The notes under the pieces are model-generated. The model worked only from the letters and a program-made list of their open reading frames with translations. It made no database searches and was not told the DNA's origin. From assembly GCA_963812605.1 (NCBI GenBank), contig CAWEWF010000005.1, positions 352,001 to 416,000 on the forward strand: DNA of 64,000 nt. The letters run 5' to 3'. This document shows positions 33,395 to 56,071 of this stretch, one piece after another (positions within the stretch are counted from its first letter, which is position 1; every line of letters begins with the position of its first letter). The translations under genes and the position numbers were made by a program. This stretch comes from an uncultured Verrucomicrobiae bacterium (GTDB lineage Bacteria > Verrucomicrobiota > Verrucomicrobiia > Palsa-1439).

Positions 33395-33433
33395 CCGCGT
33401 GTCTCTCCATCGCTGTCATCCCATTCATTATCC

Positions 33434-34543: not shown

Positions 34544-34577
34544 AAACAGCAACCGTCACCTGGAAAGGAAGAACACA

Positions 34578-35378: not shown

Positions 35379-35393
35379 CACGTGAGCAACACC

Positions 35394-36780: not shown

Positions 36781-37179
36781 GAATCAAATGCAGCTTCTCG
36801 ACCGTCACGTACGGCGTCAAGGTGCGGATACTTACGGAGCGCCTCGTCGGAAGCCGCCGCGCAGCAGAAGACCAGACGCTTATGACCAACGCGTTCGATC
36901 AGAGGAGCAAATGCCAGAGATGCCCACGCTACGACGGGCGAGTTTATGAGAATCAAGATCAGGTTCACGATGACAACGCGGTCACGGTGGGCTTTGGCCC
37001 GATCGGCTGCCGTGTTTCCCAGCCGTCCGTTTGGGGCAGGCACGCTACCCGATGCTTCACGATTCATTTTGTTCCACCGGGGTATAAAGTTCCGTGTGAT
37101 TGGTCATATGATACAGAGAGTGTTGAAAGGAAACACTAACGAGCCAACAACAAACATGCGAGAAGAAAAGGAGAGAACA

Positions 37180-38298
37180 ATGAAGGAATACGGAGGTTTA
37201 TTTGGAATCGTTCGAATCGGCGCGCGTTTCTAAAGAACGGAATCGTGGTGGCAGGCGCAGCGACAGTCGGCGCTGGGCTGGTTGGAAACGACGCTCTCCG
37301 CTTTCGGTCGGGGAGAAAGACGCGATCTTACGCGGGGAGACGTGGCCATTCTCAAGCTCCTGGCTGCAGCCGAGCTGATCGAGGCCGATCTGTGGCAGCA
37401 ATATAATGAACTCGGAGGAATCAATGCGCCAACGTACAGGCTATACGGCTGCCCTCCTAATTCTGGATGGCGATCAACTCCAGTATATCTCCGATAATAC
37501 CGATGATGAGATGAGCCACGCGGCCTTCCTGAACGCCTATCTGAAATCCAAGGGCCAAGAGCAAGTCGATCTCAGTCATTTCGCCAAACTACAACCCAGC
37601 CAAGTATCGACCGTGCCCCAAACCGGACGGCTGACAAACCTAATGCAGCTCACAGTGGATACCAGTTGGTGGACGCGGTACCGCAGCACGACCAACCCGG
37701 ATTTCGGTGCCATCTTCGCGGAGGCGGTTCCGAGCCTGAATTCCGGGCAGCATACGGCCATCCCCAGAAACAACGGCGAATTGGGCGACCCGAATAACCC
37801 CAGCGACCACGTCAAAGCGATCGCGTTCACGGCAGGATTTCACTTCGCTTTCATCGAGCAGGGCGGGACGAGCCTCTACGCCACACTGGCTCAAAAGGTA
37901 ACCAGTCCGGAAGTTTTACGAATCCTCCTTGGTATTGGCGGATCGGAGATTATGCACTTCCAGACATGGCAGGACAAGGCCGGCAACGCGACTCCATTGA
38001 CTGACTTTGACTCCGGTGAACAATTCGTCAGTGACGTTTCACGGACCTCGCCACTGGCCAGCCGGAGACGATGCAGGCTAACCTCATCATGCCGGAGCTG
38101 TGCGAGTTTATCAGCCCGCAACTCCCCTCCCTGCGCCATCATTCGCCCGACCGGCACGGGACAGTTGGACGCGGTGGGCGCCATCAACAGCTTCATCACC
38201 GACGGCCTTTTCGTCGGTCAGCCGAAAGCCTTTACAGACATGCTCCTCGCCATGGCGGCGGAGAGCCGATGAGGCCAGGCGTGACATGTAAGAAATAG
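37180..38298 (+). CDS. Tat-exported ferritin-like domain protein, several frameshifts
   Basis: NRRAFLK, AAELIEADLWQQY, DDEMSH, FIEQGG, EIMHF. Confidence 0.7.
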
Positions 38299-38338
38299 CG
38301 CGAACCGGAGCGAATGTCCGGCTCGTCAGGAGAAACCT

Positions 38339-38551
38339 ATGGCACCTGTATTAGCTATTATAAGTGAGTGGCACATCTTCCTTGTGCTGATGTCGTTTTC
38401 CTGCTGTTTGGAGGCAGGAAAATGCCGAAGTTGGCCCGTGGTGATCGGCGAGGCCATGAGGGAGTTCAAAAAAGCCTCTCGCGATGTTCACGATGATTCA
38501 CCACGAACAGCTTCTCCTCCTGCGCCAATTGAGCCGAAAAGAAGCCCATAA
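38339..38551 (+). pseudogene. TatA-like subunit, degenerate or indel-damaged
   Basis: LLFGG..K.P in an alternative frame followed by GEAMREFKKA. Confidence 0.6.
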
Positions 38552-38574
38552 CCGACTTAAGATTGTCTCTTGTC

Positions 38575-38860
38575 ATGAGGCAAGCATGCCAGTTCGATTA
38601 CGGAACATGTGACGTTTCGACTCAACGCCCCCCGGGCGCAGGAGGTGCAGGTGATCGTCTGTTTAGTCAAAGACGATGCAAAACCAGTAATTGGTGCCCT
38701 GCGTAAGGGCCTTGATGGCAGTCTGGAGTCTGCGAATGGAACGGGCACGCGGGCGATACGTCTATCGTTTTCTCGTGGACGGCAGTCCCACGCTGGATCC
38801 CTCTGCGCGCTACAATGTGACGGATGATCAAGGCGGCAGGTGGAATATGCGCGAAATGGG
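38575..38860 (+). pseudogene. Glycogen-binding (CBM48-like) small protein remnant
   Basis: VTFRLNAP.AQEV..RYVYRFLVDG..LDP across frames. Confidence 0.45.
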
Positions 38861-38898
38861 GTATTGAATTCCTTATTGGGACGCTGCCTACGAAGCTG

Positions 38899-39120
38899 TT
38901 GCTGTTCGGGAAAAGTTCTGATATGATTGTCGGGGCGGTTCTTTGAAAAGCGTGCTCGCGAGGGCGCAATACCCCTCACCTTTAATCCTCTCCCCCAAGG
39001 GGAGAGGAGGGGGTGCGAAACATGGTTTCTGCGAAACGAACCCCCCAGTTAACCAGCGATTTTCCAAGGACTTAGAGAGACGGGGGGTAGAAGAATGAGG
39101 GCGAAATTGGGTCGATTGAG
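38899..39120 (+). repeat. Composite non-coding repeat copy 2
   Basis: TTGCTG-17-TATGAT, GCGGTTCTTTGAAAA, REP-like hairpin, TTTCTGCGAAACGAACC. Confidence 0.7.
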
Positions 39121-39207
39121 GCAGTTGGCAAGGGCATGAGGCGAAGAGACGACGGCAAGTGGGGCGTTTGCCCTACAATTCCGGAGAGAGGGGAACCGCG
39201 CTTAGCA

Positions 39208-40677
39208 CAGCCTGTCGGACTTAAGTTGAACGCGGGAAGCAATCGGAGTTCTAAAGGGACATGAGCGCTCGCTTCGTCAATATTGACCGTTGTACCCCCA
39301 TGCTGTTGCCACCGGATCTGCGCGAGTGGATTGCCGATGATGACCTTGCCCACTTCGTGTTGGAAGCCGTCGAGAGCAGCGATCTGGGCTTGGCCGCCGT
39401 CAACGCCCGCGGCACGGGCAGCGAACAGTATCCGCCCTCGATGATGCTGGCGGTGCTGTTGTACTGTTATGCTAGCGGCCTGTTCAGCTCGCGGCGCATC
39501 GAGCAGGCGACGTATCGGCATCTGTCCGTGCGCTATCTCAGCGGCAATACCCATCCCGACCACGACACCATCGCCAAGTTTCGTCGAGAGAACACGCCGC
39601 TGATCGAATCGGTGTTCGTCCAGGTGTTGGAACTGGCGCGCGAGTTGGGGCTGTTGCGGTTGGGCGTTGTGAGCCTGGACGGAACCAAGCTGCGCGCCAG
39701 CGCCAGCAAACGGGCCACGCGCACCGAGGCGGAAGTGCAACAGGAACTGGCCGCGCTGCGCCAGCAAGTTGATCAACTGCTGGATCGAGCCGAGCAGGCC
39801 GATGCGACCGAGGGCGACGACGGCACGCGCTTGCCCCCCGCCTTGGCTTGCCGTCGGAGCCGTCGGGCGCAACTGGAGGCCGCGCGCCAACGACTGGCCG
39901 AGCGTACCCGCCAACGAGCTGCGCAGCGTCAAGCCGAACAAGACTACCCGCCCGACCAACCCGGTCGTCCGCCTCGTCGGTTGCCCGCCGAGCCACGACC
40001 GACGGATCGTGTCAACACCACCGACCCCGACAGTGGGCTGATGCCCACGGCCCGCGAAGGATTCATCCAGGGCTACAACGCGCAATTGGCCGTGAGCACC
40101 GACGGCGGCTTGATTGTGGCCGCCCGTGTCACCGATGAACCCGGTGACCGACGCCAACTGGCGCCCACCGTGGCGGCGATTGCGCCCTCGCTCGGCTGCC
40201 CCTTCGCCGTGCTGGCTGACACCGGCTTCGACAACCAACGGCAGATCGCCCAGGTCGAGCGCCAGGGACGCACGGTGGTGTACTGTTCTCCCCAGTCCGC
40301 TCCATCACAACCACCGAGCGGCTGGCAACCGCGCGGCCATCAACGGCGCACCGCCCAAGCGCGAGCGCGGATGCGGGCCCGCTTGGAGAGCGCCACGGGT
40401 CGCGCGTTATATCGGCTGCGCGCCATCACCGTCGAACCGGTTATTGGGATTCTCAAAAGCGTGCTGGGCTTTCGACAGTTTCACTTGCGGGGACTGCGCA
40501 AGGTACAAACCGAGTGGCAACTCTTGGCGTTGGCCTTCAATTGTCGGAGACTGGCCAAGCAGAGTCGCGGCAATTGAGAGGGTTACGCCTCAACCTTCGC
40601 ACCAACAGGAATCCTTGGCAACCGAACCCGCCCATGCCACCTTCCATCGTATGATCTACAATAAGTCCGACAGGCTG
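39208..40677 (+). mobile_element. IS1182-family insertion sequence
   Basis: Perfect 16-bp IRs CAGCCTGTCGGACTTA (39208-39223 and 40662-40677); 5-bp direct repeat TAGCA on both flanks. Confidence 0.92.
39261..40577 (+). CDS. IS1182-family DDE transposase
   Basis: LLPPDLREW, SSRRIE, PDHDTIAKFR, DGTK, TDPDS, GYNAQ, ADTGF, VEPVIG. Confidence 0.92.
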   Translation: MSARFVNIDRCTPMLLPPDLREWIADDDLAHFVLEAVESSDLGLAAVNARGTGSEQYPPSMMLAVLLYCYASGLFSSRRIEQATYRHLSVRYLSGNTHPDHDTIAKFRRENTPLIESVFVQVLELARELGLLRLGVVSLDGTKLRASASKRATRTEAEVQQELAALRQQVDQLLDRAEQADATEGDDGTRLPPALACRRSRRAQLEAARQRLAERTRQRAAQRQAEQDYPPDQPGRPPRRLPAEPRPTDRVNTTDPDSGLMPTAREGFIQGYNAQLAVSTDGGLIVAARVTDEPGDRRQLAPTVAAIAPSLGCPFAVLADTGFDNQRQIAQVERQGRTVVYCSPQSAPSQPPSGWQPRGHQRRTAQARARMRARLESATGRALYRLRAITVEPVIGILKSVLGFRQFHLRGLRKVQTEWQLLALAFNCRRLAKQSRGN

Positions 40678-40743
40678 TAGCAAGCGGGGCCACAGTTCGG
40701 CGGGCTTACAACGGCGGCCTATCATGTTTTTAGAAATTCTGGT

Positions 40744-43186
40744 ATGATTGCGGGTGTGAAGAAGAAATTAGAATTGATTGCGCCGGCGGGGAATATGGAA
40801 TGCGCGCGGGCGGCGGTGGCGAACGGCGCGGACGCGGTGTACTTCGGCCTGGAAAAATTCAATGCGCGGATGCGCGCGGACAATTTCACCGAGGAGCAGT
40901 TGCCGGGCTTGGTCCGCTTTCTGCACGAGCACGGCTTGCGGGCGTTCTGCACGGTCAACACGCTGATTTTTACGGACGAGTTGGCGGAGGCGGAGCGTGA
41001 GTTGATGCTGCTCGACCAAGCGGGCGTGGATGTGATCATCGTCCAGGACCTCGGGTTGGCGGTGCTGGCTCGTGAACTCGGTGTGCGAATGGACGTGCAC
41101 GCCTCGACGCAGATGACGATCACATCGCCGGAGGGCGCTAAATTCGCTGCGCGTCTTGGCGTCAAGCGCGTGGTGTTGGCGCGGGAAGCGTCGATGAAGG
41201 AGATCGCAAGTTCGGCAACGAGCGCGGAGATCCCGGCGCTGGAGGTCTTTGTCCATGGAGCGCTCTGCGTGGCGTATTCGGGTCAATGCCTGACGAGTGA
41301 AGCGCTCGGGCAGCGCAGCGCCAACCGCGGTGAATGCGCGCAGGCTTGCCGTTTGCCGTATGAACTGGTCGTCGATGGCGCGGTGAAGGATTTGGGCGAC
41401 CGACGCTACCTGCTCTCGCCGCAGGACCTCGCGGCAGTTCGTGAGATTCCTGAACTGATTCGTCTGGGTGTGACCGGTTTCAAGATCGAGGGGCGGCTCA
41501 AATCGCCGGAGTACGTCGCGGCGACTTGCCAGGTTTATCGCAAGGCCATTGACGCGGCCCTTGGCTCCCAGTCCACCACTCCCGACGAGGCGGACAAGTA
41601 CAAGCTGGAAATGACGTTTTCCCGCGGTTTGTATTCGGGGTGGTTGCACGGCGTGAATCACCAGGAGTTGGTGCATGCCCGCTTCGGCAAGAAGCGCGGG
41701 CCATTCGTGGGGCCCATCAAACAAGTGGGCGCCGATCATGTCGAAGTGGACGCGCAGACGCCGTTGCAGGCTGGTGATGGCGTGGTGTTTGATAACGGCG
41801 GCGACACGGATCATGAACAGGGCGGACGCATCTGGGAGACACGGGGGAACAGCCTTTACTTCGAGCGAGGGCACATCGATTTTGGCAAGCTGAAGCCCGG
41901 CGACCGCGTGTGGAAAACCAGCGACCCGCAGCTCCAGCGTGAATTGAAACGCACGTACAAGAACGATATTCGGCGCCCAAAAACCAGGATCGACCTGACG
42001 GTGAAGGGCGAGGTCGGGAAGGCCATGACGATCGAGGCGAACGGGGTGCGGGTCAATTCATCCATGGCTTTGCAGACGGCGTTTCGGCGGCCGTTGACGG
42101 AGAAATTGTTGCGCGAGCAACTGGGACGAATGGGGGAGACAAATTTTGAGATGGGCGAGCTTCACAACAAGCTCGTCGGCCAGGCGATCCTGCCCGTGAG
42201 CGAGCTCAATCGCCTGCGGCGCGATCTGGTGGAGAAGATTGTTGCCGCGCTGGAGGCCGGGACCATCCCGCGGACGGGATTGACGTTCCGTCCTTCCTGA
42301 ATTGCTCGCGAATATTCCCGAACGGCAGACGGCCGCAGCGACTCAACTTGTCGTCTTGTGTCGCACGATGGAACAACTGGCGGCGGCGCTCGATTCCGGT
42401 TGCGCGACTGTTTATGTGGATTTTGAAGATATTCGTCGCTACGACGAGGCGGTGGCGTGCGTGCGAAAGCGGACGGGAGCACAGATATTTCTGGCAACAC
42501 CACGGATTCAAAAGGCTGGCGAGCAGGGATTCTTCAAACTGATCAATGACTCCAGGCCGGATGGGGTGCTGATTCGCAACTTGGGCGGCCTGGACTATTT
42601 TCGCGAGAGCTCGCTGCGCAAGATTGGCGATTTCTCACTCAACGTTGCCAACCCGCTGGCCGCCGAGGTTCTCATGCGCGAGGGATTGGAACGCCTCACC
42701 GTTTCGTATGACCTCAATGCGCAGCAAGTCCTTGATCTGTTGCGCGCCGCATCACCCGACTGGTTTGAACTGACCGTTCATCAGCACCTGCCGATGTTTC
42801 ATATGGAGCACTGCGTTTTTGCCGCGTTTCTTTCCAACGGCACCGACGCCTCCAATTGCGGGCGCCCTTGCGATAGTCATAACCTGAAACTGCGCGACCG
42901 CGTCGGTGTGGAACACCCGGTGAAGGCCGACGTGGGCTGTCGCAACACCGTTTACCACGCGAAAGCGCAAAGCGGGGCCGATTACCTGCAATCGTTCCTG
43001 AAGGCCGGCGCCCGCGTGTTTCGTGTCGAACTCCTGGAAGAAGATGCCGCGAAGACCCGTGCGATCGTGCAGGGCTACCGGGACTTGATCGACGGGACGG
43101 CCGCAGATTCATCCGCTTTGTTCCGCCGACTGAATGTGGTGAAACAACTGGGCGTCACCAGCGGAACGCTCACCGTCTTGTCCTGA
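40744..43186 (+). CDS. Peptidase U32 family protein with DUF3656 (RlhA-like rRNA hydroxylase); frameshift near 42285
   Basis: ELIAPAG, HASTQM, HGALCVAYSGQC, NRGECAQACR, KIEGR; C-terminal MEHC..C..C in the second frame. Confidence 0.82.
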
Positions 43187-43197
43187 CCCGCCTGCCG

Positions 43198-44403
43198 CTA
43201 CTCATCCTGGTCCATCTGGTCTGTGGGCGGGAGTTCCTTCCGATGGGTCAGGAAAAATGCGCCGCCGACAATGCTCCAGAACAGCGACGCGAGATAGCCC
43301 AGCAACGACATCACCAGCGCCACTGGCTCCGCCACGCCGACCTCGTGAAACATCTTGATGTACATGCCCTCGCGCACACCAAAACCCGAAATGGTGATCG
43401 GCACGGCCGTCACGGAATTAATGATCGGCAGGTAGAGAAAGTAGTCGGTGAAACTCGCGGAGGTAACTCCCAAACCACGGCCCACGCACCAGATGCTGAG
43501 CATGGAGAAGAAGTGGACGACAAATGAGATCACCAGCGTCTTGGTCAGAATCACCGGATGAGAGGCGTAGACGCGATACGCGTCCACCATGCGTCGCATC
43601 GTGGCGTAATGCGGCATCCGCTGCAGCCACGACCGTAATCCCGGAAGCTTGTCCGCAAATCCGCGCCATAAACCAACGACCGTGCCGACAACCGTAAACA
43701 CCACCACGCCGAGCGTCGCCATCGAGAACCAGTACAGCTTGGGGTCATTGAACACGCGCGTGTGGTACAGCGCCATCATGAACAGCGCGATGACGAACAG
43801 CGCCAACAACCCGATCAACCGGTCAACGACGACCGTCGCGATCGCCTCGGCTTTTTTATGATGCGTCTCGTGCGCCACGTACCAGGCCTTGATCACATCG
43901 CCGCCTGTCGACCCGAGCATGAACGCATTGAAGAACAGCCCGATAAATGAAATCGAAAAGAGCCGCGAGAATTTTACCTCCAGCCCCTGCACATGCAAAA
44001 TCCACTGCCACCGGAGAATACCGAGAAGGGCCGGCATTCCCGCGCAGATAACGGCAGCCGCCAACCACAAGGCGCTGATTTTCCGCAGCGCTTCCCACAA
44101 GGCCCGCGGGCCGATGGTCCAGACAAGTGGAAAACGCTCGGACCAAGTGAGGTTCTTGAGGTTGACAGTCGGAACAACTTTTTCTTCCACTTGCTCTTGC
44201 ACGATGCCCTTGGCGCGCACGAGTTCCACTTGATCCGGACGAAGGCGCAGATCATGGGCCAGATCGGCGACGCTCGCATTGGGTGAGTCGGCGATCTTCC
44301 CCAAGGTCTGCGTCACTTCTTTTTGGAAAATGCCGTTGAACAGGTAGGCGAGAATGCCCACGCTGACCACCACCCGCACCAACGCGCCGAGTTTTTTCTT
44401 CAT
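43198..44403 (-). CDS. Lysylphosphatidylglycerol synthase TM-domain (UPF0104 flippase-like) protein
   Basis: LRW, GSTGGDVIK, DRLIGL, PITISGFGVRE. Confidence 0.8.
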   Translation of the reverse strand: MKKKLGALVRVVVSVGILAYLFNGIFQKEVTQTLGKIADSPNASVADLAHDLRLRPDQVELVRAKGIVQEQVEEKVVPTVNLKNLTWSERFPLVWTIGPRALWEALRKISALWLAAAVICAGMPALLGILRWQWILHVQGLEVKFSRLFSISFIGLFFNAFMLGSTGGDVIKAWYVAHETHHKKAEAIATVVVDRLIGLLALFVIALFMMALYHTRVFNDPKLYWFSMATLGVVVFTVVGTVVGLWRGFADKLPGLRSWLQRMPHYATMRRMVDAYRVYASHPVILTKTLVISFVVHFFSMLSIWCVGRGLGVTSASFTDYFLYLPIINSVTAVPITISGFGVREGMYIKMFHEVGVAEPVALVMSLLGYLASLFWSIVGGAFFLTHRKELPPTDQMDQDE

Positions 44404-45323
44404 ACAGTGACAGGCTTTCTCAGCAAGTCGTGCACCCGTTTCAGGTTTTTAACGATTTGGTCCGGCTTCCATTCGGGATGAATTTCCCAAGCCAATACCA
44501 TGTCATCAGTCACGAACGGCGCCAGCCGGCCAAAATCAAACGTCCCAAATCCCGGCGGCTGATGGTCTTCGGCGGGTGGAGAAAAATCCTGCAAGTGCAT
44601 TCCTGCTGTCCGCCCGCGGAACCGCCCCAGGATGGTTTCCAGGTGCATCAGGCCCAGCGTTTCCTTCACCGCCGCGTGCCCCACGTCGTGCCAGTACAGG
44701 ATCGACTCGGTGCCGAATCGCTTCAGGATCTCCTCCGCCTCGATCTCCGTCGGGATTTCTTCAATGCCGAAACGCGTTTCCATCCCGAGCTTCACGTTCA
44801 CTTCCTTCGCGTGCGGCAAGACCTCCTCCAACGTCCGATAGACCTGCTCAAGATGCTTTTGGCGCTTCTTATCGCGCATGGTTTGCGCCTTGTCTCGCAA
44901 CCGCTGGAACTTCGGCGTCTCGCCGCGACCATCCGCGCACAACCCCAGCAGCCGCATCGTGTAATCCCGCATCGGCACCCGGCCCAGGTGCAGCACCACC
45001 GCCTTCGCGCCGAGCGTCGCTGCGCAATCGATCGTCCGCAACGTGTGCCGCACCGCGCACTGCCGCTCATCCTCGTCCCGCGAGCTGGGTAAATAATAAT
45101 CCGGTGCCGACCCCATCACGCCGAGGGGCAGGGGACAAAAATTGTGGAGGGAACAAATCTTGATCTCGCCCGCCGCCACCGCCTGCAGCACGCCGTCCAG
45201 AAGCGACAGCCGCGTGCCGTGCCCCAACTCGGCGTACTCAAACCCGAGCGCGCGCACTTCATTGACCATCGCGCGCCCGTCCGTATGGCGCTGGGAATTC
45301 CAGCAAGTTGAAAAGGCGAACAT
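44400..45323 (-). CDS. Sugar phosphate isomerase/epimerase (TIM barrel)
   Basis: SLHN, VLH, METR, WHDVGH, HLQD, DHQPPG, EIH. Confidence 0.8.
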   Translation of the reverse strand: MFAFSTCWNSQRHTDGRAMVNEVRALGFEYAELGHGTRLSLLDGVLQAVAAGEIKICSLHNFCPLPLGVMGSAPDYYLPSSRDEDERQCAVRHTLRTIDCAATLGAKAVVLHLGRVPMRDYTMRLLGLCADGRGETPKFQRLRDKAQTMRDKKRQKHLEQVYRTLEEVLPHAKEVNVKLGMETRFGIEEIPTEIEAEEILKRFGTESILYWHDVGHAAVKETLGLMHLETILGRFRGRTAGMHLQDFSPPAEDHQPPGFGTFDFGRLAPFVTDDMVLAWEIHPEWKPDQIVKNLKRVHDLLRKPVTV

Positions 45324-45403
45324 GAATTGAAGGGGCCAGCCCAAAAATTGTCGGGGCCAGCGTGCGCATCGCGGCGCTGGCCCCGCTGATTGTCTATGCT
45401 CGT

Positions 45404-45580
45404 TTAGAATCCGATGAAGGTGCGAGGCCCACGGGCTTTACGCCGACGCTTCTCGCTCGGCTTCTCGTAGTGACGATGGGCCCGCGCCTCACGCAAAGTC
45501 CCCTCGCGATCCAGCTTCTTCTTCAGCCGGCGCAGGGCCTTTTCCACAGGCTCACCTTTTTTTAGTCTGACTTCTGACAA
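45404..45580 (-). CDS. rpsU: 30S ribosomal protein bS21 (58 aa, absent from ORF track)
   Basis: TTG start; [48 protein letters not shown]. Confidence 0.92.
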
Positions 45581-45663
45581 TTCCGATTCACACCCCTCTC
45601 AAACGCTTCTGCCCCGCATACTTACGTGAGACAAGAACTCTCAGCGTTACGAAAACTCCGCCC

Positions 45664-45692
45664 ATCATAACCGCCCCACCACGCCCTGTCAA
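45664..45692 (-). promoter_or_regulatory. sigma70 promoter of rpsU
   Basis: TTGACA-17-TATGAT. Confidence 0.8.
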
Positions 45693-45849
45693 TGCACACT
45701 CAAATTTGGCACTTCCCGCGTTGAACAGGCGTCCCGCCTGTTGGAGAGGGTTCGCCCCCAAGCAAATGCGGGAGCGACCTCAGCGTCGCGACTCCAGCCG
45801 TCTCCTTCCCAATTCCCTATTGAAAGTTGCGCGTTCAGCGTTGAATGTT

Positions 45850-46420
45850 GGACGTTGATCCGTTCCCACCCCCTCTCTTGCGGCCTCATTTGGGTTCGTT
45901 TTCCGGAAACGAACCCAAATAAAAACTCGCCTTCTAAAGTGCTAACCCTTTATCCCCATGATGGATGCGCACAAAAGTCCGCGTCGGCAATTTGGGTTCG
46001 TTTCGCAGAAAGCATGTTTTGTAAGCCCCCATTTTTCCACCAGGCTTCTCGCGCCGACGTGTCCGCCAGAGCTTTAGCACGGTGGAAGCGGCCTCGCGAA
46101 GGCGGATCTGATTTTCCGCTCTGCGCTCCCCGCTTTCCCTCTCTCCCAATGTCAAAGAACCGCCCCGACTATACCCCTCTTGCCACACCGCGTCCAGCAA
46201 AATTATCGTAAAACGATATATGATCCGCCCTGCCCATTCTAGCTACGCTTCTGTGAAGCGCAGGCCTGTCTTCGTCCGCGATCGGTCCGCTTTGTAGGCC
46301 GCGTGCCCCCACGCGGCGCGGATTCGGGTGCGCCACCTCCCTCCGTCGAGGCGTCCGTCTTGATTTCCAGCCCGTAAATCTCCTCTCCCCTTGGGGGAGA
46401 GGATTGAGGTGAGGGGTATT
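45850..46420 (-). repeat. Composite non-coding repeat copy 3
   Basis: TGGACG-17-TATAGT, GCGGTTCTTTGACA, 15-bp stem 45906-45920/45990-46004; colinear with copy 1. Confidence 0.8.
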
Positions 46421-47019
46421 CGTGTCACCAGGAAGGCAAGCCTCGCCCCATTGTAGGGCGCGCGGCCCGCGTGCCGTCGTCCTCCGCCTGCTTTTCCGAT
46501 CCTGTCACCCTGAGCGAGGCGAAGGGTATTGCCCGCCAGCATGGAACCCATACAAATAATAGAGGACGGCCCAGCCACACATTTTTCTCTGCCTCCGCCC
46601 GGAATCTCTCAATCCGCCATCCCCGTCCCATTGTAGCCGCAGGCTTCAGCCTGCGTGCACTCAATTCAATGACGAAAAACAGGAAGTGTGACAAAAAATT
46701 TGGCACACCTAGAAAGAATTTTGGCACAGTTGGAGCAATTTGGCACGACTGCTAATGAGCCGCGCGGGACCGATTCAATTTATTTAACATTCGATTGCGG
46801 AACTCGCATTAGATCGCGTGTACACTCCGGTTCCTGATGATATAACCCTTGTAGGGTTATAGAGTGCTTATGGTCGGAGTGCAACTCTCATATAACCATG
46901 CTGATCAGCAAGGCCGGTACGATCCATTGGCATATCCAATGCAGTATCCCGCGCCCAACGCCGCTGTGACACACATGGTGTGGGGCCTGTGGCAGTAGCA
47001 CATGGGAAATTGAGCATCC

Positions 47020-48378
47020 ATGAATAGTATCATTTTAGCCGAGTCTGATCTTCGAAACTTGATGTTCATCAGCTATGGTTACGAGGATCAGGTGTTCGCG
47101 AAGTGGTTGGCTCGGAAACTGGCGTTCTATGGTTACGGCGTCTGGATCGACCAAATTGAAATTCTTGGCGGGGAGTCGTGGGTTAAAGACGTTGATCTAG
47201 CTATTAAGGACCGCTCCTTTCGTGTGCTAGGGCTTCTCTCCAAGGCCTCCATTGGGAAGGACAATCCGCGAAAAGAGCGTACACTTGCACTTCAGTTGGG
47301 TAAACAGCGCGACACGGATGACTTTCTGATTACTTTGAACCTCGATGGCGCTCAGCCGGATTGGTCGATATCGGATATCTCGTGGATTTCATTTCGGGAA
47401 AGCTGGGCGGATGGCCTGCGCCGGCTTCTAAAGAAGCTCGAATCGTTGCACGCGCCGAGGATTCATGCAGGGAATTCGGCCATCGCGAAGGCGGCGTTGG
47501 AACGAGGTGCTTCGTTATTGTCGAAAAAAACAGAAGCTCTCACGACGAATTGGATACCATTCGTTCAGGTGCCCGAAACCCTTCAGGTATTCGACACGTT
47601 GGGCCTGAGCAAAGAACAGGGACAGGCCTGTTATGATCTCTGGCCACACTGTCGGCTCGAATCTGGAAGAGCGGCAGCCTTTTCACCTCCTCCAGCTGAG
47701 TTCACGAGACTTGTGAAACAGACCAAAGAGGTTGTCCACTGGCCATCCTTTGATTCGATCCATGGCACGTCGGCGCACAACATCGTATCTCGGCTTTTGA
47801 ACCGCTCTGTCCATTTGTGGCTTATTCGAGCGGGCTGCGTCCTCACTGCTGACTACCGCACGTACTATTTGCCCGATCCGTTTCGAGGAGAATCCATCTT
47901 CCGCTTCAAGGATGTGGACGACAAACAGGTTTACATCAGAGTCGCGGGCTGCATTCGGCTTTACCGGCCTAATTCCGTGCCGGAAGAAGTCATTCACCAC
48001 CCAGCGGTTAGCTATGTGATTCGCAAGACGGATTTAGGAAGTTTCGTAATTCAGCTTCGTCCCGGAGTGGCTTTGTTCGATGGGGCGCATAAACCCATCG
48101 TGGGTAGAAAAGTTGGCCCGCGAACCAAGAAAGTCACGCGATCTTACTTCAATGACAAATGGCGCAAACGATTGATGGCGTTTTCGCAATTGCTCGCGCA
48201 ATCGGCGAGCGAAGACAAGGAAACAACTTTGCGGCTCGGAACACTTATTACTTTGACCACCGATTGGTGTCTGGATGAAACATCCCTCTCGGTCACGGCA
48301 ACTGCTGAGGTTGAGGAGCCGGCTCAGGTCGATGTGCAGGTCAGCGCGGAAGAGATGGAGGAATTACAGGATGAGTAA
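47020..48378 (+). CDS. TIR-APAZ effector of a SPARTA-type system
   Basis: TIR motifs FISY, FAKWLARKL, GYGVWID, catalytic-like RKE; APAZ region (NWIP); acidic C-terminal tail; overlaps the pAgo start. Confidence 0.88.
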   Translation: MNSIILAESDLRNLMFISYGYEDQVFAKWLARKLAFYGYGVWIDQIEILGGESWVKDVDLAIKDRSFRVLGLLSKASIGKDNPRKERTLALQLGKQRDTDDFLITLNLDGAQPDWSISDISWISFRESWADGLRRLLKKLESLHAPRIHAGNSAIAKAALERGASLLSKKTEALTTNWIPFVQVPETLQVFDTLGLSKEQGQACYDLWPHCRLESGRAAAFSPPPAEFTRLVKQTKEVVHWPSFDSIHGTSAHNIVSRLLNRSVHLWLIRAGCVLTADYRTYYLPDPFRGESIFRFKDVDDKQVYIRVAGCIRLYRPNSVPEEVIHHPAVSYVIRKTDLGSFVIQLRPGVALFDGAHKPIVGRKVGPRTKKVTRSYFNDKWRKRLMAFSQLLAQSASEDKETTLRLGTLITLTTDWCLDETSLSVTATAEVEEPAQVDVQVSAEEMEELQDE

Positions 48379-49875
48379 GGCATTTCCGAATGTTGAGCTT
48401 TTGCCCGAGCCTGAACTGGAATTCGCCTCGCGGCAGCAAATCGAGCATCCAGTTTCGGGGCTAGGACTGTTCGGTCCGGTAGACAGCAACGGAATCGAGA
48501 AGCCAAACCGCATCAATTACGCCGTTATCGGTCGACCTGATGGCATTGTCGAGTTCAGTGCGTTTGCGGCGCGGCTAAATTCGCCGATTGATCCTCCACC
48601 TGAACGAAGTGAAATCCTCTGGCCGCATTACCCGGGTTTCGAGGAAGCGATGCACGCTGTATTTCCGAAATCCGCGCCGCTGTCTGAACCGCTGGATTCG
48701 AGAGAAATAGGAGTGCAGTTAATCAAGGCGATGACCACAAGAGAGTGTTCGATGTTACAAGTCTGTATCTCCACGCAATCCAGGCGCTCGCACGAAAGGA
48801 CACCGCCATTGACGTGACGATCTGTGTGGTGCCTGAAATCATTTACACGAATTGCCGATCACTATCGAAAGTCTCGAATGGGACGGGAAAGCGGCTTTCG
48901 GGGAAGGAGGTCAGACTCCGAAGGCAGACAGCCGATCTCTTCGGCGGATATGATTCTGAGCAGTATGATTTTTCATTGGACTTTCGTCGCCAAATTAAGG
49001 CACGCGCCATGGAGTGCAAGATGCCGATTCAGATTGTACGGGAATCTACCCTGAATCTATCGAACGAAGCGCCACCATGGGGGCAGCGCGTTTTGACTCC
49101 ATTATCTGACCGGGCGTGGAATTTGTCTACGGCGCTCTATTACAAGAGCGGCCGGAAACCTTGGAAACTTCCAAGCGCGCGGGATGGAGTTTGCTATGTG
49201 GGTATCGCATTCAAGCGAACCGATGAAAGCGGGCGAACCGCTTGCAGCGCTGCGCAGATGTTTCTGGATGACGGAGACGGAATTGTCTTCCTGGGTGATT
49301 ACGGCCCATGGTATTCCCCGGATTCCAAGCAGTGTCATCTTACGCGTTCCGCTGCACAAAGGCTTCTCGCGGGTGTGCTCAAGACCTATGAGGAGCAGCA
49401 CGGGAAGACACTACGCGAAGTGTTCTTGCATTGCCGCTCTACAATTGATGAGGAAGAATGGTGTGGCTACCAGGAAGCTTGCCCAAAGGGCGTGAAGCTG
49501 GTGGGAATTCGTGTTGCTCCCGACCGGCGAGGGCTTCGTGCTTACCGCGGTGGCACACGTCCAGTTGTTCGCGGCACTTTTTGGAAAGCCTCAGTGCGGG
49601 CGGGTTACCTTTGGGCATCAGGGTTTAAACCGGTCTTGAGAACCTACGATGGATGGGATGTTCCCGAACCGCTGCGTATTGAGATTCAGCACGGGGATGC
49701 GGACATCAGGCAGGTCGCTGTCGATATTTTTGCTCTAACCAAGTTGAATTACAATGCATGCAAGCTCGGTGAGAGCCAACCTGTAACCGTGCATTTCTCA
49801 GATGCGGTTGGAGAAATCCTAGTTGCCAACCAAGGGGCAAAGACCTTTTTGCCAAATTTCAAATACTACGTGTGA
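48371..49875 (+). CDS. Short prokaryotic Argonaute (MID-PIWI), one-base deletion near 48710
   Basis: EPELEF..P..GL.LFGP; IQIVRESTL; AWNLSTALYYKSGRKPWKL; VCYVGIAFK; LTKLNYNAC; PVTVHFS; ends FKYYV. Confidence 0.92.
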
Positions 49876-49905
49876 AAATGCGTTCTGGTGCGACCTTCAC
49901 ATCGG

Positions 49906-50643
49906 TCACTTGCTCTCCGCCACCCGCGCACTCGCATTCGACTTCACCAATTCCGCAAACGGCGCCAGCAACTGCTGGTCGTCGGCGGACATTTGTCCAA
50001 TGTCATCGAGGAGTTTCTGCGGGTCGGATTGCGCTTTTTCGCTCAACTGGACCGGGTTGCGGATCACCTTCGCGAAATGCTTGTCCACCGTTCCGCGCAG
50101 GAACACGGAGAACATCTGGGCCATTGTCGCGAGCACCGCGTTGTCCACCTTCACAAAGGCCGCGCGCGTGTACTCGATCTCGTCACCTGACTTGGCGCGA
50201 TAATCCACGATCGCCACGCCGCGTCCGCTCGCGTCGAACAGTCCATGCTGCGTGCCGGCCACGTAGATGACGCGTTTGCCGTCGCTGGCGTAAATGTTGA
50301 CCATGAAACCCGCCGCGCCGTCGTGGTCGTCCGCGTGCAGCCATCCCTCCGCGTCCCGCGTTGCGCGATATGTGATCAATCCTTCCTTCTCCGCCAGCGC
50401 CGAACAGGAGTCCATGTGATCGAACAAATACTCGAACACCGGGATCTGCGCCTTGAATGCCTCCGCCGGATACTCGCAATGCAAAGTCGGATGGTCCGTC
50501 GCCTCATGCGCCAGGGCGCGGTTCGTCACGGTCATCGACTCGAAGGGAATCAAACGTAAAGCGACCGGGTCATCCTCCGCGCGCACAGGAATCGCGCATA
50601 AGATGAAAAGGAATACCCACGTAGCGCCAACCAACCGCCTCAT
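49906..50643 (-). CDS. Hypothetical exported protein
   Basis: Signal peptide, host-like codon usage, downstream of uvrC. Confidence 0.65.
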   Translation of the reverse strand: MRRLVGATWVFLFILCAIPVRAEDDPVALRLIPFESMTVTNRALAHEATDHPTLHCEYPAEAFKAQIPVFEYLFDHMDSCSALAEKEGLITYRATRDAEGWLHADDHDGAAGFMVNIYASDGKRVIYVAGTQHGLFDASGRGVAIVDYRAKSGDEIEYTRAAFVKVDNAVLATMAQMFSVFLRGTVDKHFAKVIRNPVQLSEKAQSDPQKLLDDIGQMSADDQQLLAPFAELVKSNASARVAESK

Positions 50644-50664
50644 ACCGCAACCGTACGACAGCCC

Positions 50665-52119
50665 TCACCGATTGGCGAGAAAATCTTTCAACGCCCCTGC
50701 CATCTTCGGGCCGATGCCGGTGACCTGCGCAATTTCCTCGGCGGTCGCTTCGCGGAGACGCTGGATCGAACCGAAATGCTGTAGCAGCGCCAGCTTGCGT
50801 TTCGCGCCGAGACCGGAAAATTCATCGAGCACTGACTCCTGCACGCGACGTTTGCGCAGCTTCTGGTGATAGCTGTTGGCAAAACGGTGCGCCTCGTCGC
50901 GCAGGCGCTGAATCAGATGCAGGGCAGGGGAGTTGCGCGGCAGACGGATCGGCAACGTCTGGTCGGGCACATGGATTTCCTCCATCTGCTTGGCCAGGCC
51001 AATCACGCGAAGCTCGCGAATGTCCAGTTTCCACAAGGCATTCAACGCGGACATGAGTTGGCCTTTGCCGCCATCGACCATCACCAGATGCGGCAGCGAA
51101 CCGCCCTCCGCCCGCACCCGCGCGTAACGCCGTCCCACGACCTCCGCCATGGACGCAAAATCGTCGCTGCCTTCGACCGTCTTGATGCGGTAATGGCGAT
51201 AGTGTTCCTTGTGCGGCCGGCCATCCTGGAAACAAACGCTCGAAGCCACCGACAATGTGCCGCTGATGTTCGAGATATCAAAGCCTTCGATGTGCTGCGG
51301 CAAGGTAGGCAGGTTGAGCACGCGCTGCAGTTCTTCCATCTCGCTTTGCCATTCGATCTTGGGCGACAAATCGCGCGCGAACTTGCGTTCCCGCGACGCG
51401 CGCCCGATTTCGCGAATACTGGTGATCACATCGCGCAATTCGGCGGCCCGCTCGAATTTCCTCGCGCCCGCCGCAACGCGCATTTCTTCTTCGAGTTGAA
51501 GGACCGCTTCCTTGTTCCCTCCGTCGAGAAACACGCAGGCTTGATCGACGAGGCGCAAGTACTCTTCGTGCGGTATGTCCGCCAGCGGCACCGGCACAAG
51601 ATAGGTCGAGTACTTCAGGTCTTTCGCCTTGGGCGCCCCCGTGCCTTGCACCAAGACGCCGTACTTCTTGCGAATCCACTGCATCACCAGCCGCACCGCG
51701 CCGGCGTGCGCAAACGGCCCAAAATACCGCGCCCCATCGTCCTTCTTCAGCCGCGCAAATTTAAATCGCGGATACTCCTCGTTCAAGCTGACCTTCACCA
51801 TCAGGAACCGCTTGTCGTCCTTGAACATCGCATTGTAGCGCGGCTTGTATTCCTTAATGAGCTTACCTTCGAGCAACAGCGCCTCGGGTTCGCTCTTCAC
51901 CACCACCGTCTCGAAATCGGCAATCGACTCGATGAGAGCCCGGACCTTCGGGTCCCACCTTATCGCGCGCGACGGATGAAAGTACTGGCCGACCCGCTTG
52001 CGGAGCGAGCGCGCCTTGCCGACGTAGATGACGCGCCCCAGCTTGTCGCGCATCAAATAAACGCCCGGCTTGTTCGGCAGATCGCGAACCTTCGATTTAA
52101 GTTGTGGCCCTTCGCTCAT
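50665..52119 (-). CDS. uvrC: Excinuclease ABC subunit C
   Basis: PGVYLM..YVGKA GIY-YIG, FERAAELRD, FDIS, DGGKGQ, RDEAHRFA, HhH. Confidence 0.95.
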   Translation of the reverse strand: MSEGPQLKSKVRDLPNKPGVYLMRDKLGRVIYVGKARSLRKRVGQYFHPSRAIRWDPKVRALIESIADFETVVVKSEPEALLLEGKLIKEYKPRYNAMFKDDKRFLMVKVSLNEEYPRFKFARLKKDDGARYFGPFAHAGAVRLVMQWIRKKYGVLVQGTGAPKAKDLKYSTYLVPVPLADIPHEEYLRLVDQACVFLDGGNKEAVLQLEEEMRVAAGARKFERAAELRDVITSIREIGRASRERKFARDLSPKIEWQSEMEELQRVLNLPTLPQHIEGFDISNISGTLSVASSVCFQDGRPHKEHYRHYRIKTVEGSDDFASMAEVVGRRYARVRAEGGSLPHLVMVDGGKGQLMSALNALWKLDIRELRVIGLAKQMEEIHVPDQTLPIRLPRNSPALHLIQRLRDEAHRFANSYHQKLRKRRVQESVLDEFSGLGAKRKLALLQHFGSIQRLREATAEEIAQVTGIGPKMAGALKDFLANR

Positions 52120-52182
52120 CGATATGGAGAATAATAGCCGATTTGCACCAGAATTTGGAGTGCGGCAACTCATAACTCTCCG

Positions 52183-52206
52183 GTGGCACAGGCGTCCCTG
52201 CCTGTG
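52183..52206 (+). repeat. REP-like hairpin
   Basis: GTGGCACAGGCGTCCCTGCCTGTG; near-identical copy inside cca. Confidence 0.65.
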
Positions 52207-52217
52207 TGCGGATTGGA

Positions 52218-53829
52218 TCAACCACCCGCTTGCTTCGACCCGAATCGCAGCACCGCCAACGTTTCCCCCAGTTCAGTAACACGAAGCACCTTGCAGGACG
52301 CGCCGAAAACAACGACAGCGACCGCCATCGACACGAGCATGTCGAGGTATCGGTTGAATTCACAGAGATGATGCGTGCTGTAAGCCGCGGCAGTCATCAG
52401 CGCCGAGGCGACGACAAGCTTTCGCCAGCGAACGCAGCAGAGCGGACACCTCAAGGCGGCCGATTTTGCGACGCATCAGCGCCAGGAGCAGGAAAAAGTT
52501 GCAAAGCGCCACGCACGATGTCGAAAGCGCCAGCCCGGCCGTCTTCATCCCAAACGTAACGGCAAACAGGTAATCCGTGCCGGCGTTGACGACGACGGAA
52601 GCCATCGTCACGTACATCGGGGTGCGCGAATCCCCGAGCGCGTAGAACGTCGGCGCGATGATCTTGATGGCGGCGTAAGCCACGAGCCCCACCGCAAAGG
52701 CGCGCACACAATTCGCCGTTTGCGCCGTCGCGAACGCGTCGAACTTGCCGTGCTGGTAAATCGCCGCGATGATGGGCGTGGCCAGGACCCACATGCCGCA
52801 CGCCGCCGGCAAGCACAGGAAAAACGCCAGCCGGATCGAACGGGCCAGCGTCTTGCGGAATTCGACCATGTTCCCGCGTACTGCGTGGGCGCTCACCGTC
52901 GGCAGCGTGGCGACGCTGATGGCCACGCCGAATACGCCAATCGGGAATTGCATCAAACGAAACGCGCAATTCAGCCAGGTCACCGCGCCGCTCCCGTTCG
53001 CGCCCGACATTTGCGGCCAGGAAGCAAACCATTGGTCAACGAAGATGTTCACCTGGACGGCCGCCGTGCCGAGGACCGATGGGCCGAGCAATCGCAGGAC
53101 CTGGCGAAAGCCGGGATCGTGCCAATCGAGAATGGGCTCATAGCGATAGCCCACCTTCCGCAGGCTCGGGACCTGGATGATCCATTGCAGCGCGCCGCCG
53201 ATGAGCGTGCCGATGCTCATGCCCACCATGGCGCGGCCCGCCAGCGCCGGGTTGTGCAGGAATCCCGGCGCCAGCAGAAACGCGAAGGCCAGGCCGCCGA
53301 CGATCGAGCCAATATTAAACATCATCGACGCGCTGGCGGGCACTCCAAAGCGATGTTTCGCGTTGAGCATCCCCATCGCGAGCGCCGCGAGCGCGACCAT
53401 GAGCAGGAACGGGAACATGATCCGGGTCAACGTCGTGGTAAGTTCCACTTTGCCCGGAATCTCGGTGAACCCCGGCGCAATCATGCGCACGAGCCAGGGA
53501 GAAATGATAACCCCAATCAGCGTGGTCATCGCGAGCACGAGAATCAGCGCATTGAGGACGAGATTCGCCAGACGCCACGCCGATTTGTCGCCTTCCGCCG
53601 AGAGCTTCTGCGAGAATGTGGTCACGAAAGCGGCCGACAACGCGCCTTCGGCGAACAGGTCGCGCAGCAGATTCGGGATGCGGAAGGCGGTGACGAACGC
53701 GTCGAACTCGCGATTGGCGCCGAAAAGCGCGGCCAGCACCTGCTCGCGGACAAGCCCGAGCACACGGCTACAGAGGACCGCAAGGCTGACCGTGCGCGCC
53801 GAGCGGGCGACGTTGTGCTCTTCGCTCAT
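52218..53829 (-). CDS. murJ: Lipid II flippase MurJ (frameshift near 52420)
   Basis: SRVLGLVRE, AFRIPNLLRDLFAEGALS, RLMQFPIGVFG, FYALGD. Confidence 0.92.
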
Positions 53830-54942
53830 GCTGGCGCCGGGTCGCGCTCCTCGACGCCGAGTTGTTTCAGCACGGCCTTGACGACTTCATCCACCTGGAC
53901 GCCCGTCATGCAACGAAAATCGATCGGGCATTCACGCAGAAAACAAGGACTGCATTCGACAGGCTGGCGAATCACCACGCTGCGGGAAGAGAGCGGTCCG
54001 GTGAGTTCGGGCGACGTCGATCCCCAGATGCTGATCACCGATGTGCCGATGGCGGCGGCGATATGCATCGGGCCCGTATCGTTTGTCAGGAGCAGCTTGC
54101 AGAACCGGAGCAGGGCGCACAAATCCAGCAGCGTGGTCTCGCCCGCGACGTTGATGATGGAACTGTCTCCCAACCCCGCGTCGCGAAGTTTCGCTTCGAT
54201 CTGGCAGGCGATCTCGGTATCGCGCGGCCCGCCCAGGATCAGCCAGCGGGTATTGGCGTGATAGGAGACCTTGATTGCAGTCTCGGCAAAGCGCTCGGCC
54301 GGCCAGCGTTTCGCGGGGCCATATTCCGCGCCGGCGTTGATGGCGATGACGGGGCGACCGTCGTCTCGCAGGAATTTATTGAGCGGCGGCATCTCTTCCA
54401 GGGCAAGATAGATTCGGGGAGGAACCGGTTGGCTGTTGCCGCCAAGGCGCGAGATGATATCAAGATATTGCTCGGCCTGGTGCCGCGACGAAGGAAAGAC
54501 CTTTACTTGAAACGTTTTGTCCGGCGACGGTCTTGTTTTGGTAAATGGCACGCTCCCCGGGCGGCTGACCGACAACATCAGTCAGGAGGAAGCGGCGCCA
54601 GTGCCCGGCAAAGCCGACCCGGCGGGGAATTCCAGCGAGCCGGCATTCCCACGCCGACCGAAAGGAATTCGGAAAGATGACGGCCAGGTCGAATGCGCCT
54701 TCGCGAAGGACGCGCACATCGGGCCGGTCCCCGAAGGGAATGACCTCATTGATGAACGGATTGTGCCGCCAGAGGTCCGTCAGCTTGCCGGGGCAGAGCA
54801 GGGCAATATGGGCGTCCGGCGCCAGTTCGCGCAGGCGCTGGACGGCAGGCATGGTCATCACCGAGTCGCCGATCCAGTTGGTCGCGCGAATCAGGATGCG
54901 CGTCCCGCCGTTATCGGTGGCAGATCCTGGCGACTGCGTCAT
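53826..54942 (-). CDS. waaF: LPS heptosyltransferase II, GT9 (frameshift near 54518)
   Basis: NWIGDSVM, PNSFRSA, GAEYGPAKRWP, NDTGPMHIAAA. Confidence 0.88.
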
Positions 54943-56071
54943 CAAAGTCCTTTGCGCCGGAGATGATGCGGATTTCCACCCGCAAGTAGTAAATGGGAAT
55001 GTCGCGGCGGTCAATCTTTGGAAAACGGACCGCGTCCTTTTCCGTCGTGAGAATGGCATCCGCGCCGCGTTTGAGGCTGCGGTTGATCATATTGATGATC
55101 TCCTGCTGCGAGTAGCGATGGTGGTCCGCGTAACGTTTGGCGTAAATGACCTCCGCGCCCAGCCCGCGCAGCCCATCCTCGAAGCTTTCCGGCACGGCGA
55201 TACCGGAAATGGCGGCGACTTGCAGCCCTTGCAGCGTTTCCAACGGATGACGCACGCCGGTGAAGACATCCTGCAAGTAGAGCGGCTGGTGCGAGCACTC
55301 GATGATTTCGGCCTTCTCATTGAACTGGCGGATGGCCTTGCGCAGTTTTTTTGCGCCGAGCTCGCTCGATTTGGTGATGAAGATGTAATCGGCGCGCTTG
55401 AGATTGGCGATGGGTTCCCGCAAGGTGCCCCGGGGCAGGAGATAATGATTCCCGAAAGGGTCATTGCGGTCGATCAGGCAGATGTCGAGGCGGCTCTTGA
55501 GCGCCAGATACTGGAAGCCGTCGTCGAGCAAAAGCGTGTCGCACCCAAACTTGGAGATGGCGTAGCGCCCGCTCTTGACGCGGTCCTTGTCGACGAGGAC
55601 GACAACATCCTTGAGATTGGACGCCAGCATGTACGGCTCGTCGCCCGCCTGGCCGCTATCGAGCAGCAACGACCGGCCGTCGGACACGATCTTGGGCGGG
55701 ACCCGGTCCTCTTGAAAGGTGACCTTGGCGACGATCCGTTGCCAGAGCGGGCGCGGCGTGCTCTTGTAACCTCGCGAAAGAATGGCGACGCGACGCCCGC
55801 GTTGCTGCAGCGCCCGGGCGAAGACCTCCACCACGGGCGTCTTGCCGGTGCCGCCGACGCTGAGGTTGCCGATGCTGACAACCTGGCAGCCGAGAGTATG
55901 GTCGCGGAAGATGCGATGCTGCCAGAGATACAAACGGGCTTGAATGGCCACTTCGTAGACCTTGGACAACCCCAGCAGCGCCGCGCTCGTGAGCCGCGCA
56001 GGCCAGTCACGGCGCCGTTCGAAGATGACGTCGAGCACATACTGCTCGACGTTTTCAGTCCATTGCCACAT
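54911..56071 (-). CDS. lpxK: Tetraacyldisaccharide 4'-kinase
   Basis: [38 protein letters not shown]. Confidence 0.95.

Follow-up and report, generated by a model that had tools for sequence, protein, structure and literature searches.

SPARTA systems combine a short prokaryotic Argonaute (pAgo) with a TIR-APAZ protein that serves as effector. The solved systems nearest to the locus examined here are MapSPARTA of Maribacter polysiphoniae, CrtSPARTA of Crenotalea thermophila and BabSPARTA, all from clade S2A (PDB 8fex, 8ifk, 8isy and 8qlo, among others; Koopal et al. 2022, PMC9097488). According to the experimental passages of that study, MapAgo and CrtAgo are non-cleaving, neither NADase activity nor plasmid-triggered cell death persists once Map or Crt TIR-APAZ carries the E77A substitution, the NADase activity of CrtTIR-APAZ is unregulated when this protein is alone, and MapTIR-APAZ lacks stability in the absence of its Ago (PMC9097488). 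The passages of the structural studies that deal with these points add that, in the inactive complex, TIR-APAZ's C-terminal tail occupies or blocks the nucleic-acid cleft (PMC10899771), and that the C-terminal carboxylate of Ago helps hold a metal ion at the 5' phosphate of the guide (PMC10474274). As to hosts, a figure legend of the founding survey lists Acidobacteria, Bacteroidetes and Proteobacteria, and the word 'Verrucomicrobia' does not appear in its main text, supplements aside (PMC9097488). The present work addresses a locus of this type found at positions 47020-49875 of a 64,000-nucleotide stretch of DNA (hereafter the window), which belongs to contig CAWEWF010000005.1 of the metagenome-assembled genome (MAG) GCA_963812605.1.

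This locus is probably a horizontally acquired, translationally coupled two-gene SPARTA operon whose pAgo gene, interrupted by a one-base break in the assembled sequence, owes this break to an assembly indel, the operon of the real organism being intact.

Organization and assignment of the putative SPARTA operon

Both genes lie on the forward strand, the TIR-APAZ gene preceding the short pAgo gene. The former extends from 47020 to 48378 and encodes 452 aa if counted from the first ATG, the real start possibly lying a few codons downstream; its 3' end reads GAT GAG TAA, with the TAA stop at 48376-48378. The pAgo gene begins with an ATG at 48371, the protein opening with MSKAFPNVELLPEPELEF, and its stop is at 49875. 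An 8-nt stop/start overlap (48371-48378, ATGAGTAA) therefore joins the 3' end of the first gene to the 5' end of the second. The cassette is borne by a segment of lower GC content (about 46500-49900), with values of 0.50-0.55 vs 0.58-0.63 on either side. A preliminary description, made from the letters of the DNA alone, had already reported a low-GC two-gene cassette between rpsU and uvrC and a TIR-APAZ stop overlapping the pAgo start. Both observations hold, the flanking genes being recognized by the TIGR00030 and TIGR00194 profiles and a 245-aa open reading frame (ORF) lying between pAgo and uvrC. Its attribution of the cassette to SPARTA, as a TIR-APAZ protein accompanied by a presumably inactive short pAgo made of MID and PIWI, agrees with the profile, sequence and fold evidence set out below, including the proposed check against PADLOC models.

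The TIR-APAZ protein carries a TIR domain, the putative NADase, at residues 16-137 (47065-47430), which matches Pfam TIR_2 with an E-value of 6.8e-20 over model positions 2-122 of 122. The PADLOC model Aga_TIR-PNTD1-PNTD2 matches it over its full length (4.1e-57; residues 12-438 on model positions 3-425 of 430). A sequence search of the PDB retrieved SPARTA TIR-APAZ chains at 4e-18 to 2e-15, mainly through the TIR domain. As this search saw little of the APAZ half, the structure of the protein was predicted with AlphaFold2 (AF2) from an alignment of 37 TIR-APAZ sequences and submitted to a fold search of the PDB. The model has a mean predicted local distance difference test score (pLDDT) of 81.1, with values mostly of 88-96 over residues 171-410 and low values in the C-terminal tail. 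Together with the fold matches, it locates a predicted APAZ domain at about residues 165-420 (47510-48280). The top matches are SPARTA TIR-APAZ chains, with about 445 aligned columns and E-values of about 1e-23; the global template modelling score (TM-score) against these chains is merely 0.40-0.45 and the root-mean-square deviation is high, which is attributed to a different orientation of the TIR and APAZ domains in the model.

Glu86, the putative catalytic residue (motif RKE, codon at 47275-47277), aligns with the Glu of the LKE motif of the PDB SPARTA TIR-APAZ chains and, counted on the aligned chain, is the equivalent of Glu77 of MapTIR-APAZ and CrtTIR-APAZ. Both Glu86 and Asn177 are invariant in the 37 aligned TIR-APAZ sequences. 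The protein ends with an acidic tail (48292-48375) of low pLDDT that, by analogy, may correspond to the tail blocking the cleft of inactive SPARTA.

The short pAgo is encoded in two parts in different frames: a 5' part in frame 2 (48371-48709; residues 1-113, the N-terminal part of MID) and a 3' part in frame 1 (48712-49875; the remainder of MID and PIWI, 387 open codons and the stop). The PADLOC model pAgo_I matches the 5' part at 8e-20 (model positions 3-109) and the 3' part at 3.9e-137 (positions 119-493 of 493); since the two parts abut on this model, nothing but the frame is lost. In the PDB, the 3' part matches residues 116-507 of the Ago chains 8ifk_B, 8j8h_A, 8fex_B and 8qlo_B with E-values from about 1e-81 down to 5.5e-83, the best match being the SPARTA Ago 8ifk_B (5.5e-83), and the 5' part aligns with residues 7-112 of SPARTA Ago chains. 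Judging from this coverage of model and chains, the protein would comprise about 500 aa and contain MID and PIWI only, devoid of N and PAZ domains. No Pfam Piwi domain was detected in either part at E-values up to 0.1, and no NCBIfam family was found at 1e-5 for TIR-APAZ or pAgo.

As the preliminary description had noted, the MID-PIWI protein carries the string CYVGIAFK, with an Ala at the PIWI position examined, and none of the 45 aligned sequences has an Asp there. Judging from the residue-for-residue alignment with the non-cleaving MapAgo and CrtAgo, this column is presumably the first position of the DEDX catalytic tetrad of PIWI. In the MID domain, the motif [DN]FRR[QH][IL]KA is found in 42 of the 45 aligned pAgos, with an Arg where 8ifk_B (FHDQLKA) has a His, and the Lys of QIKAR is conserved. 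In view of the HK, YK and RK motif types, the Arg/His position may be a residue of the 5'-phosphate pocket. The C-terminus, FKYYV-COOH, aligns exactly with the final residue (Ile507) of the solved SPARTA Ago chain, and a terminal F[KR]xY[IV]-COOH is retained in 44 of the 45 pAgos.

PADLOC, the PDB sequence search and the fold search all point to a SPARTA operon of clade S2A. Some of the matches extend to other short pAgo systems, so that the pair might have been of another type (SPARSA, SPARDA or SPARHA), or its TIR protein might have acted apart from the Argonaute. Indeed, the modelled APAZ region resembles the APAZ domains of SPARDA and SPARHA as well (TM-scores of 0.62-0.69 on the target for their APAZ-only chains), the PADLOC SIR2-APAZ models give weak matches (1.9e-4), and the 3' part of pAgo finds Agos of these systems too, 9om4_B of SPARHA at 9e-42 and those of SPARDA at 1e-28 to 5e-37. 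However, the effector is a TIR protein, TIR-APAZ and SPARTA are ahead by at least 30 orders of magnitude in the best profiles and in all the top structures, and the two genes overlap. Furthermore, a TIR-APAZ gene lies directly upstream of pAgo in 40 of 44 related loci, two of the other four ending just upstream of pAgo. This assignment is thus highly improbable and is refuted as far as the sequence and fold evidence allows.

Expected mode of action

The mechanism expected for this pair follows, by homology with MapSPARTA, CrtSPARTA and BabSPARTA, the steps given in the mechanistic passages of PMC9097488, PMC10899771 and PMC10474274. TIR-APAZ and pAgo would form a 1:1 heterodimer, which both the C-terminal tail and contacts between TIR and MID would keep auto-inhibited. 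Small 5'-phosphorylated RNAs would be taken up by the pAgo as guides and would pair with complementary single-stranded DNA of an invader such as a highly transcribed plasmid or a phage. This pairing would drive the dimerisation of pAgos and then the formation of a tetramer of heterodimers. The TIR domains assembled in this way would hydrolyse NAD(P)+ to ADP-ribose (phosphate) and nicotinamide by means of Glu86, and the invaded cell, having lost its NAD(P)+, would stop growing or die.

The one-base break in the pAgo gene

As assembled, the reading frame of pAgo is not intact, whereas that of TIR-APAZ is. The pAgo is read in frame 2 from 48371 to ...PLDSREI (48709) and in frame 1 from 48712 (SAVNQGDDHKRVFD...) to the stop at 49875. 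Just two bases (48710-11) separate the Ile and Ser codons, where the homologues have a full codon (IES, IDS, IEA); the intact homologues, which are 500-501 aa long and 86-90% identical over the 3' part, read ...D[SA]K[EG]I[ED]SAANQGDDHKRVFD... at this site. When the DNA is aligned with that of six close relatives (L004-L008 and L044), a 1-nt gap appears in the window alone; the aligner puts it within GGAGT-GCA, its exact place being ambiguous inside 48710-48715. The one-base deletion previously proposed near 48710 is therefore located to these six positions, all six relatives carrying the base.

Such a split might be deliberate, resulting either from programmed -1 frameshifting or from the synthesis of two polypeptides, a 148-aa N-terminal fragment and a MID-PIWI protein restarting at GTG 48745. 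The two frames do overlap over about 130 nt (48688-48817), and GTG 48745 opens the downstream ORF. However, no slippery heptamer of the X XXY YYZ type occurs within 48700-48720. The two parts are in one frame in all six close relatives and in 40 of the 41 loci that have both parts, among 44 related loci retrieved from the genomes of GTDB species, and therefore no conserved recoding signal is apparent. In addition, the break falls inside the MID domain and every solved SPARTA Ago is a single chain. Programmed frameshifting is thus rejected, given the lack of a slippery site and the absence of the break from all six close relatives, and a deliberate split of either kind appears extremely unlikely.

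The frame breaks of the assembly as a whole bear directly on the origin of this one. The MAG comprises 15 contigs and 4.17 Mb, with a completeness of 90%. Frame junctions were searched within the window by comparison with the orthologous regions of three relatives, G004, G006 and G012 (UvrC 92-93% identical), under strict criteria, both pieces having to reach 50 aa in length and 70% identity. The ORFs of G006 and those of G012 each reveal five breaks in 32-35 kb of window, and those of G004 reveal two in 6.3 kb. By comparison, the control pair G006 vs G012 shows 1-2 junctions per 29 kb and the same-genus genome G009 shows 7 per 26-31 kb. At the scale of the genome, uninterrupted ORFs (150 aa or more) taken from 400 kb of G009 were compared by tblastn with the MAG, which gave 38 frame junctions in 174 kb of matched sequence, i.e. 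0.22 per kb; in the opposite direction, 60 junctions were counted in 181 kb of G009. The latter, which is the other genome of the genus available in very few contigs (10), shows a like excess of frame breaks.

Five conserved genes of the window are split in this manner, all of them inside Pfam domains. The first, at about 26913-26928, encodes an NtrC-like sigma-54-dependent response regulator, whose Sigma54_activat domain is split between two frames (positions 1-50 and 46-168, respectively); this break is seen with G006 and G012. The second, at about 42286, affects a U32 peptidase and is seen with G006, G012 and G009. Those of MurJ (about 52418-52420, affecting the last 65 residues) and of a GT9 glycosyltransferase (about 54510-54520) are seen with all four relatives. 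The last, seen with G006 only, lies at about 63678 in a MiaB/RimO-like methylthiotransferase with UPF0004, radical-SAM and TRAM domains. In DNA alignments with at least two relatives, four of the five correspond to 1-nt insertions in the window. Like the pAgo break, these breaks lie outside long homopolymers, and the halves of each broken gene remain about 75-96% identical to their orthologues. The real loss of MurJ and of about 15% of the conserved genes is implausible in a free-living bacterium with a 4-Mb genome, particularly with both halves so well conserved, and therefore assembly error is the simpler reading of these breaks.

Since the assembly splits MurJ, the MiaB/RimO-like enzyme and three more conserved genes, the pAgo break carries little information on its own. 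A rate of 0.14 breaks per kb (5 per 35 kb) predicts 0.41 breaks in the 2.86-kb operon, with a probability of 0.34 of at least one; the genome-wide rate of 0.22 per kb predicts about 0.6, with a probability of 0.46. One break in 2.9 kb is therefore about what assembly error alone would give, and the earlier proposal that the operon is probably intact gains support from an assembly rich in single-base indels that split conserved genes.

Alternatively, the frameshift might be real, pAgo being a recent pseudogene and the locus a decaying SPARTA whose TIR-APAZ is left without sensor and regulator. The deletion is, after all, present in the assembled sequence, defence genes are often lost, and SPARTA is sporadic in the genus. 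Selection as read from the sequences leans the other way, though not decisively: pAgo bears a single lesion in 1.5 kb, with no further stop in its 113 + 387 codons, and its ratios of non-synonymous to synonymous substitutions (dN/dS) against relatives (0.03-0.04 for the 3' part and 0.07-0.09 for the 5' part), like those of TIR-APAZ (0.08-0.11), are the same as between intact homologues. Moreover, next to a non-functional pAgo, a TIR-APAZ protein would do harm or serve no purpose, so that its gene should decay as well, but its reading frame shows no lesion. A real frameshift is therefore considered unlikely.

Several points weigh against an intact operon hidden by an assembly error. The break site has no homopolymer longer than 2 nt and thus departs from the most typical kind of long-read error. 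The long-read origin of the assembly is itself not on record and is deduced from the number of contigs and the pattern of errors. The control pair (G006 vs G012) is not clean, the excess of breaks in this assembly being about 2.5- to 5-fold rather than absolute. As the synonymous divergence (dS) from the nearest relative exceeds 1, a very recent frameshift would leave dN/dS unchanged. Public reads bring no contradiction to a real deletion, since they give no cover at the break: three soil-metagenome runs of one study, with no RNA run listed beside them, matched the window (shares of 0.16, 0.13 and 0.06) and yielded 10 contig pieces of 151-311 nt, all identical to the window, with 48376-49179 uncovered. 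Finally, a scan for promoters and terminators over 46400-50100 remained at chance level (2 vs 2.3 expected and 5 vs 4.1).

Globally, an assembly artefact is the most likely cause of the pAgo break and is clearly favoured over a real mutation. By analogy with the solved systems, the operon is probably functional.

Relatives and distribution

The 3' part of pAgo is 85-91% identical to intact homologues, and the 5' part is 72-83% identical to the corresponding sequences of the six close relatives used for the DNA alignment. The closest copies (85-91%) are carried by MAGs labelled Limisphaerales, Verrucomicrobiales, Methylacidiphilales, Chthoniobacteraceae and Verrucomicrobiota; one close-copy record labelled Bifidobacteriaceae looks misbinned. 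Verrucomicrobiota labels are found on 15 of the 44 loci fetched. More distant pAgos, 54-63% identical, come from Planctomycetota, Chloroflexota, Latescibacterota, Poribacteria, Gemmatimonadota and two archaeal MAGs, and two fall outside this range, one from a Kiritimatiellia MAG (76%) and one from a Bacteroidales locus (34%). On the evidence of these sequences, the Arg-type MID pAgos appear to form a large SPARTA subclade with no characterised member, spanning Verrucomicrobiota, Planctomycetota, Chloroflexota, Latescibacterota and archaeal MAGs.

Among the 41 genomes searched with the pAgo query, two gave a match, this one included. The other is the sole genome matched among 17 others of the same genus, with a pAgo 61% identical to the query. 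This genome has two pAgo matches (C48:178956-180086 and C95:72209-73078), one being the 61%-identical sequence and the other a 33%-identical sequence that is probably another short-pAgo type.

A few of the related loci depart from the common pattern. In a Thermoplasmata archaeon MAG (L039), the two pAgo parts are in different frames, like those of the window, and in a Latescibacterota MAG (L035) a stop occurs within the TIR-APAZ match; these may be real lesions or assembly errors. In two Dehalococcoidia MAGs (L041 and L042), only residues 94-387 of the 3' part of pAgo find a match (63%), and neither the 5' part of pAgo nor a TIR-APAZ gene was found in the 6 kb upstream; these loci may be truncated remnants or have a different architecture.

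The attribution of the host to the Verrucomicrobiota, guessed in the preliminary description, is weakly supported by the best organism-labelled match of UvrC, a 'Verrucomicrobiota bacterium' protein that is 77% identical. Its suggestion of a possibly undescribed host and variant stands in part: the subclade has no characterised member, but intact operons 85-91% identical to this one are already present in public Verrucomicrobiota MAGs.

Genomic context and acquisition

The left conserved flank of the cassette is rpsU, which encodes ribosomal protein S21 (45404-45580, reverse strand; TIGR00030, 1e-19). On the right, the conserved 245-aa ORF (49906-50643, reverse strand) is convergent with pAgo and precedes uvrC (50665-52122, reverse strand; TIGR00194, 3e-122); no Pfam or NCBIfam family was found for this ORF. 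With about 485 aa, UvrC is short in this genome as in all relatives, matching the model over positions 1-229 and about 400-645, as if its middle were missing.

Synteny with relatives is lost at about 45700 and recovered at about 49895 (49893-49903 in G004, G006 and G012). Apart from short repeats, the segment 45700-49897 has no counterpart in G004, G006, G009 and G012. In G006 and G012, the gap between rpsU and uvrC is occupied by about 9 kb of other genes (L087:5033-14311 in the former, L090/L091 in the latter), and in G009 only 157 bp separate the rpsU-side and uvrC matches. This gap is thus a variable spot. Its reading as a 'defence hotspot' or dedicated defence island is unsupported by the cargo of G006, which comprises a Fic/DOC protein, a trypsin-like peptidase and the alpha and beta subunits of a 2-oxoacid:ferredoxin oxidoreductase.

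The non-coding segment 45700-46660 is a patchwork of short dispersed repeats, for which blastn found 51 further matches (27-211 nt) scattered over many contigs of this MAG; these repeats also occur in G006 and G012. This patchwork is native to the genome, the foreign low-GC part beginning at about 46500-47000. Horizontal acquisition is the best explanation for the cassette, considering its low GC content, its sporadic presence in the genus and the differing cargo at the same spot in relatives. No integrase or transposase is encoded between rpsU and uvrC, no tRNA gene was found in 40000-56000 and no Rfam match in 44000-51000. The search for flanking direct or inverted att-like repeats gave no convincing candidate, only pairs of 14-27 nt at chance level.

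Elsewhere in the window, an accessory stretch of about 11.8 kb (28956-40756) has no counterpart in G006, G009 and G012. Its ORFs include GT87, anti-sigma zf-HC2, DUF2231, DUF420 and ferritin-like proteins, and it harbours an insertion sequence (39261-40577) with DUF772 and DDE_Tnp_1 transposase domains.

Comparison with known systems

The biology of this operon would be ordinary, given the detailed structural and biochemical knowledge of SPARTA and the abundance of near-identical intact copies in public MAGs. The sole variant feature worth testing is the Arg-type MID motif, common to the whole subclade, which is widespread in soil and freshwater Verrucomicrobiota and in neighbouring phyla. It is conceivable, though rather doubtful, that this subclade differs in its preference for the guide 5' end or guide type, or in its activation threshold; that a real frameshift has caught a SPARTA just as it loses its sensor but retains its NADase is less likely than such a difference. 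The subclade could also supply variants for SPARTA-based nucleic-acid detection tools. More generally, apparent pseudogenes of this genome should not be taken at face value, given that a frame break occurs about once every 5-7 kb in conserved coding sequence.

The uncharacterised operons of public Verrucomicrobiota MAGs (for example L004, L006-L008 and L044; P0001-P0009), whose pAgo is 85-91% and TIR-APAZ 69-83% identical to those of the window, share its architecture and overlap region, but they are intact and lie in other genomic contexts. Like SPARSA (SIR2-APAZ), SPARDA and SPARHA, the locus associates a short MID-PIWI pAgo with an APAZ effector; in these systems, as in SPARTA, activation occurs through guide-directed target binding with oligomerisation. 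However, their effector is a SIR2 protein or a DREN or HNH nuclease instead of a TIR protein, and their scores are far weaker. Like MapSPARTA, CrtSPARTA and BabSPARTA, the locus has the same gene order and similar sizes (452 aa and about 500 aa), with a pAgo aligned from end to end. Its TIR-APAZ resembles those of solved SPARTA in its TIR catalytic Glu, APAZ fold and acidic C-terminal tail, and its pAgo resembles theirs in its C-terminal KYY[IV]-COOH and in the lack of an Asp at the presumed first PIWI catalytic position. Unlike them, it carries a far diverged TIR-APAZ (about 20% identity in the structural alignment), its MID motif is FRRQIKAR instead of the FHDQLKAR of 8ifk_B, its pAgo is frameshifted as assembled, and its host is a soil Verrucomicrobiota MAG.

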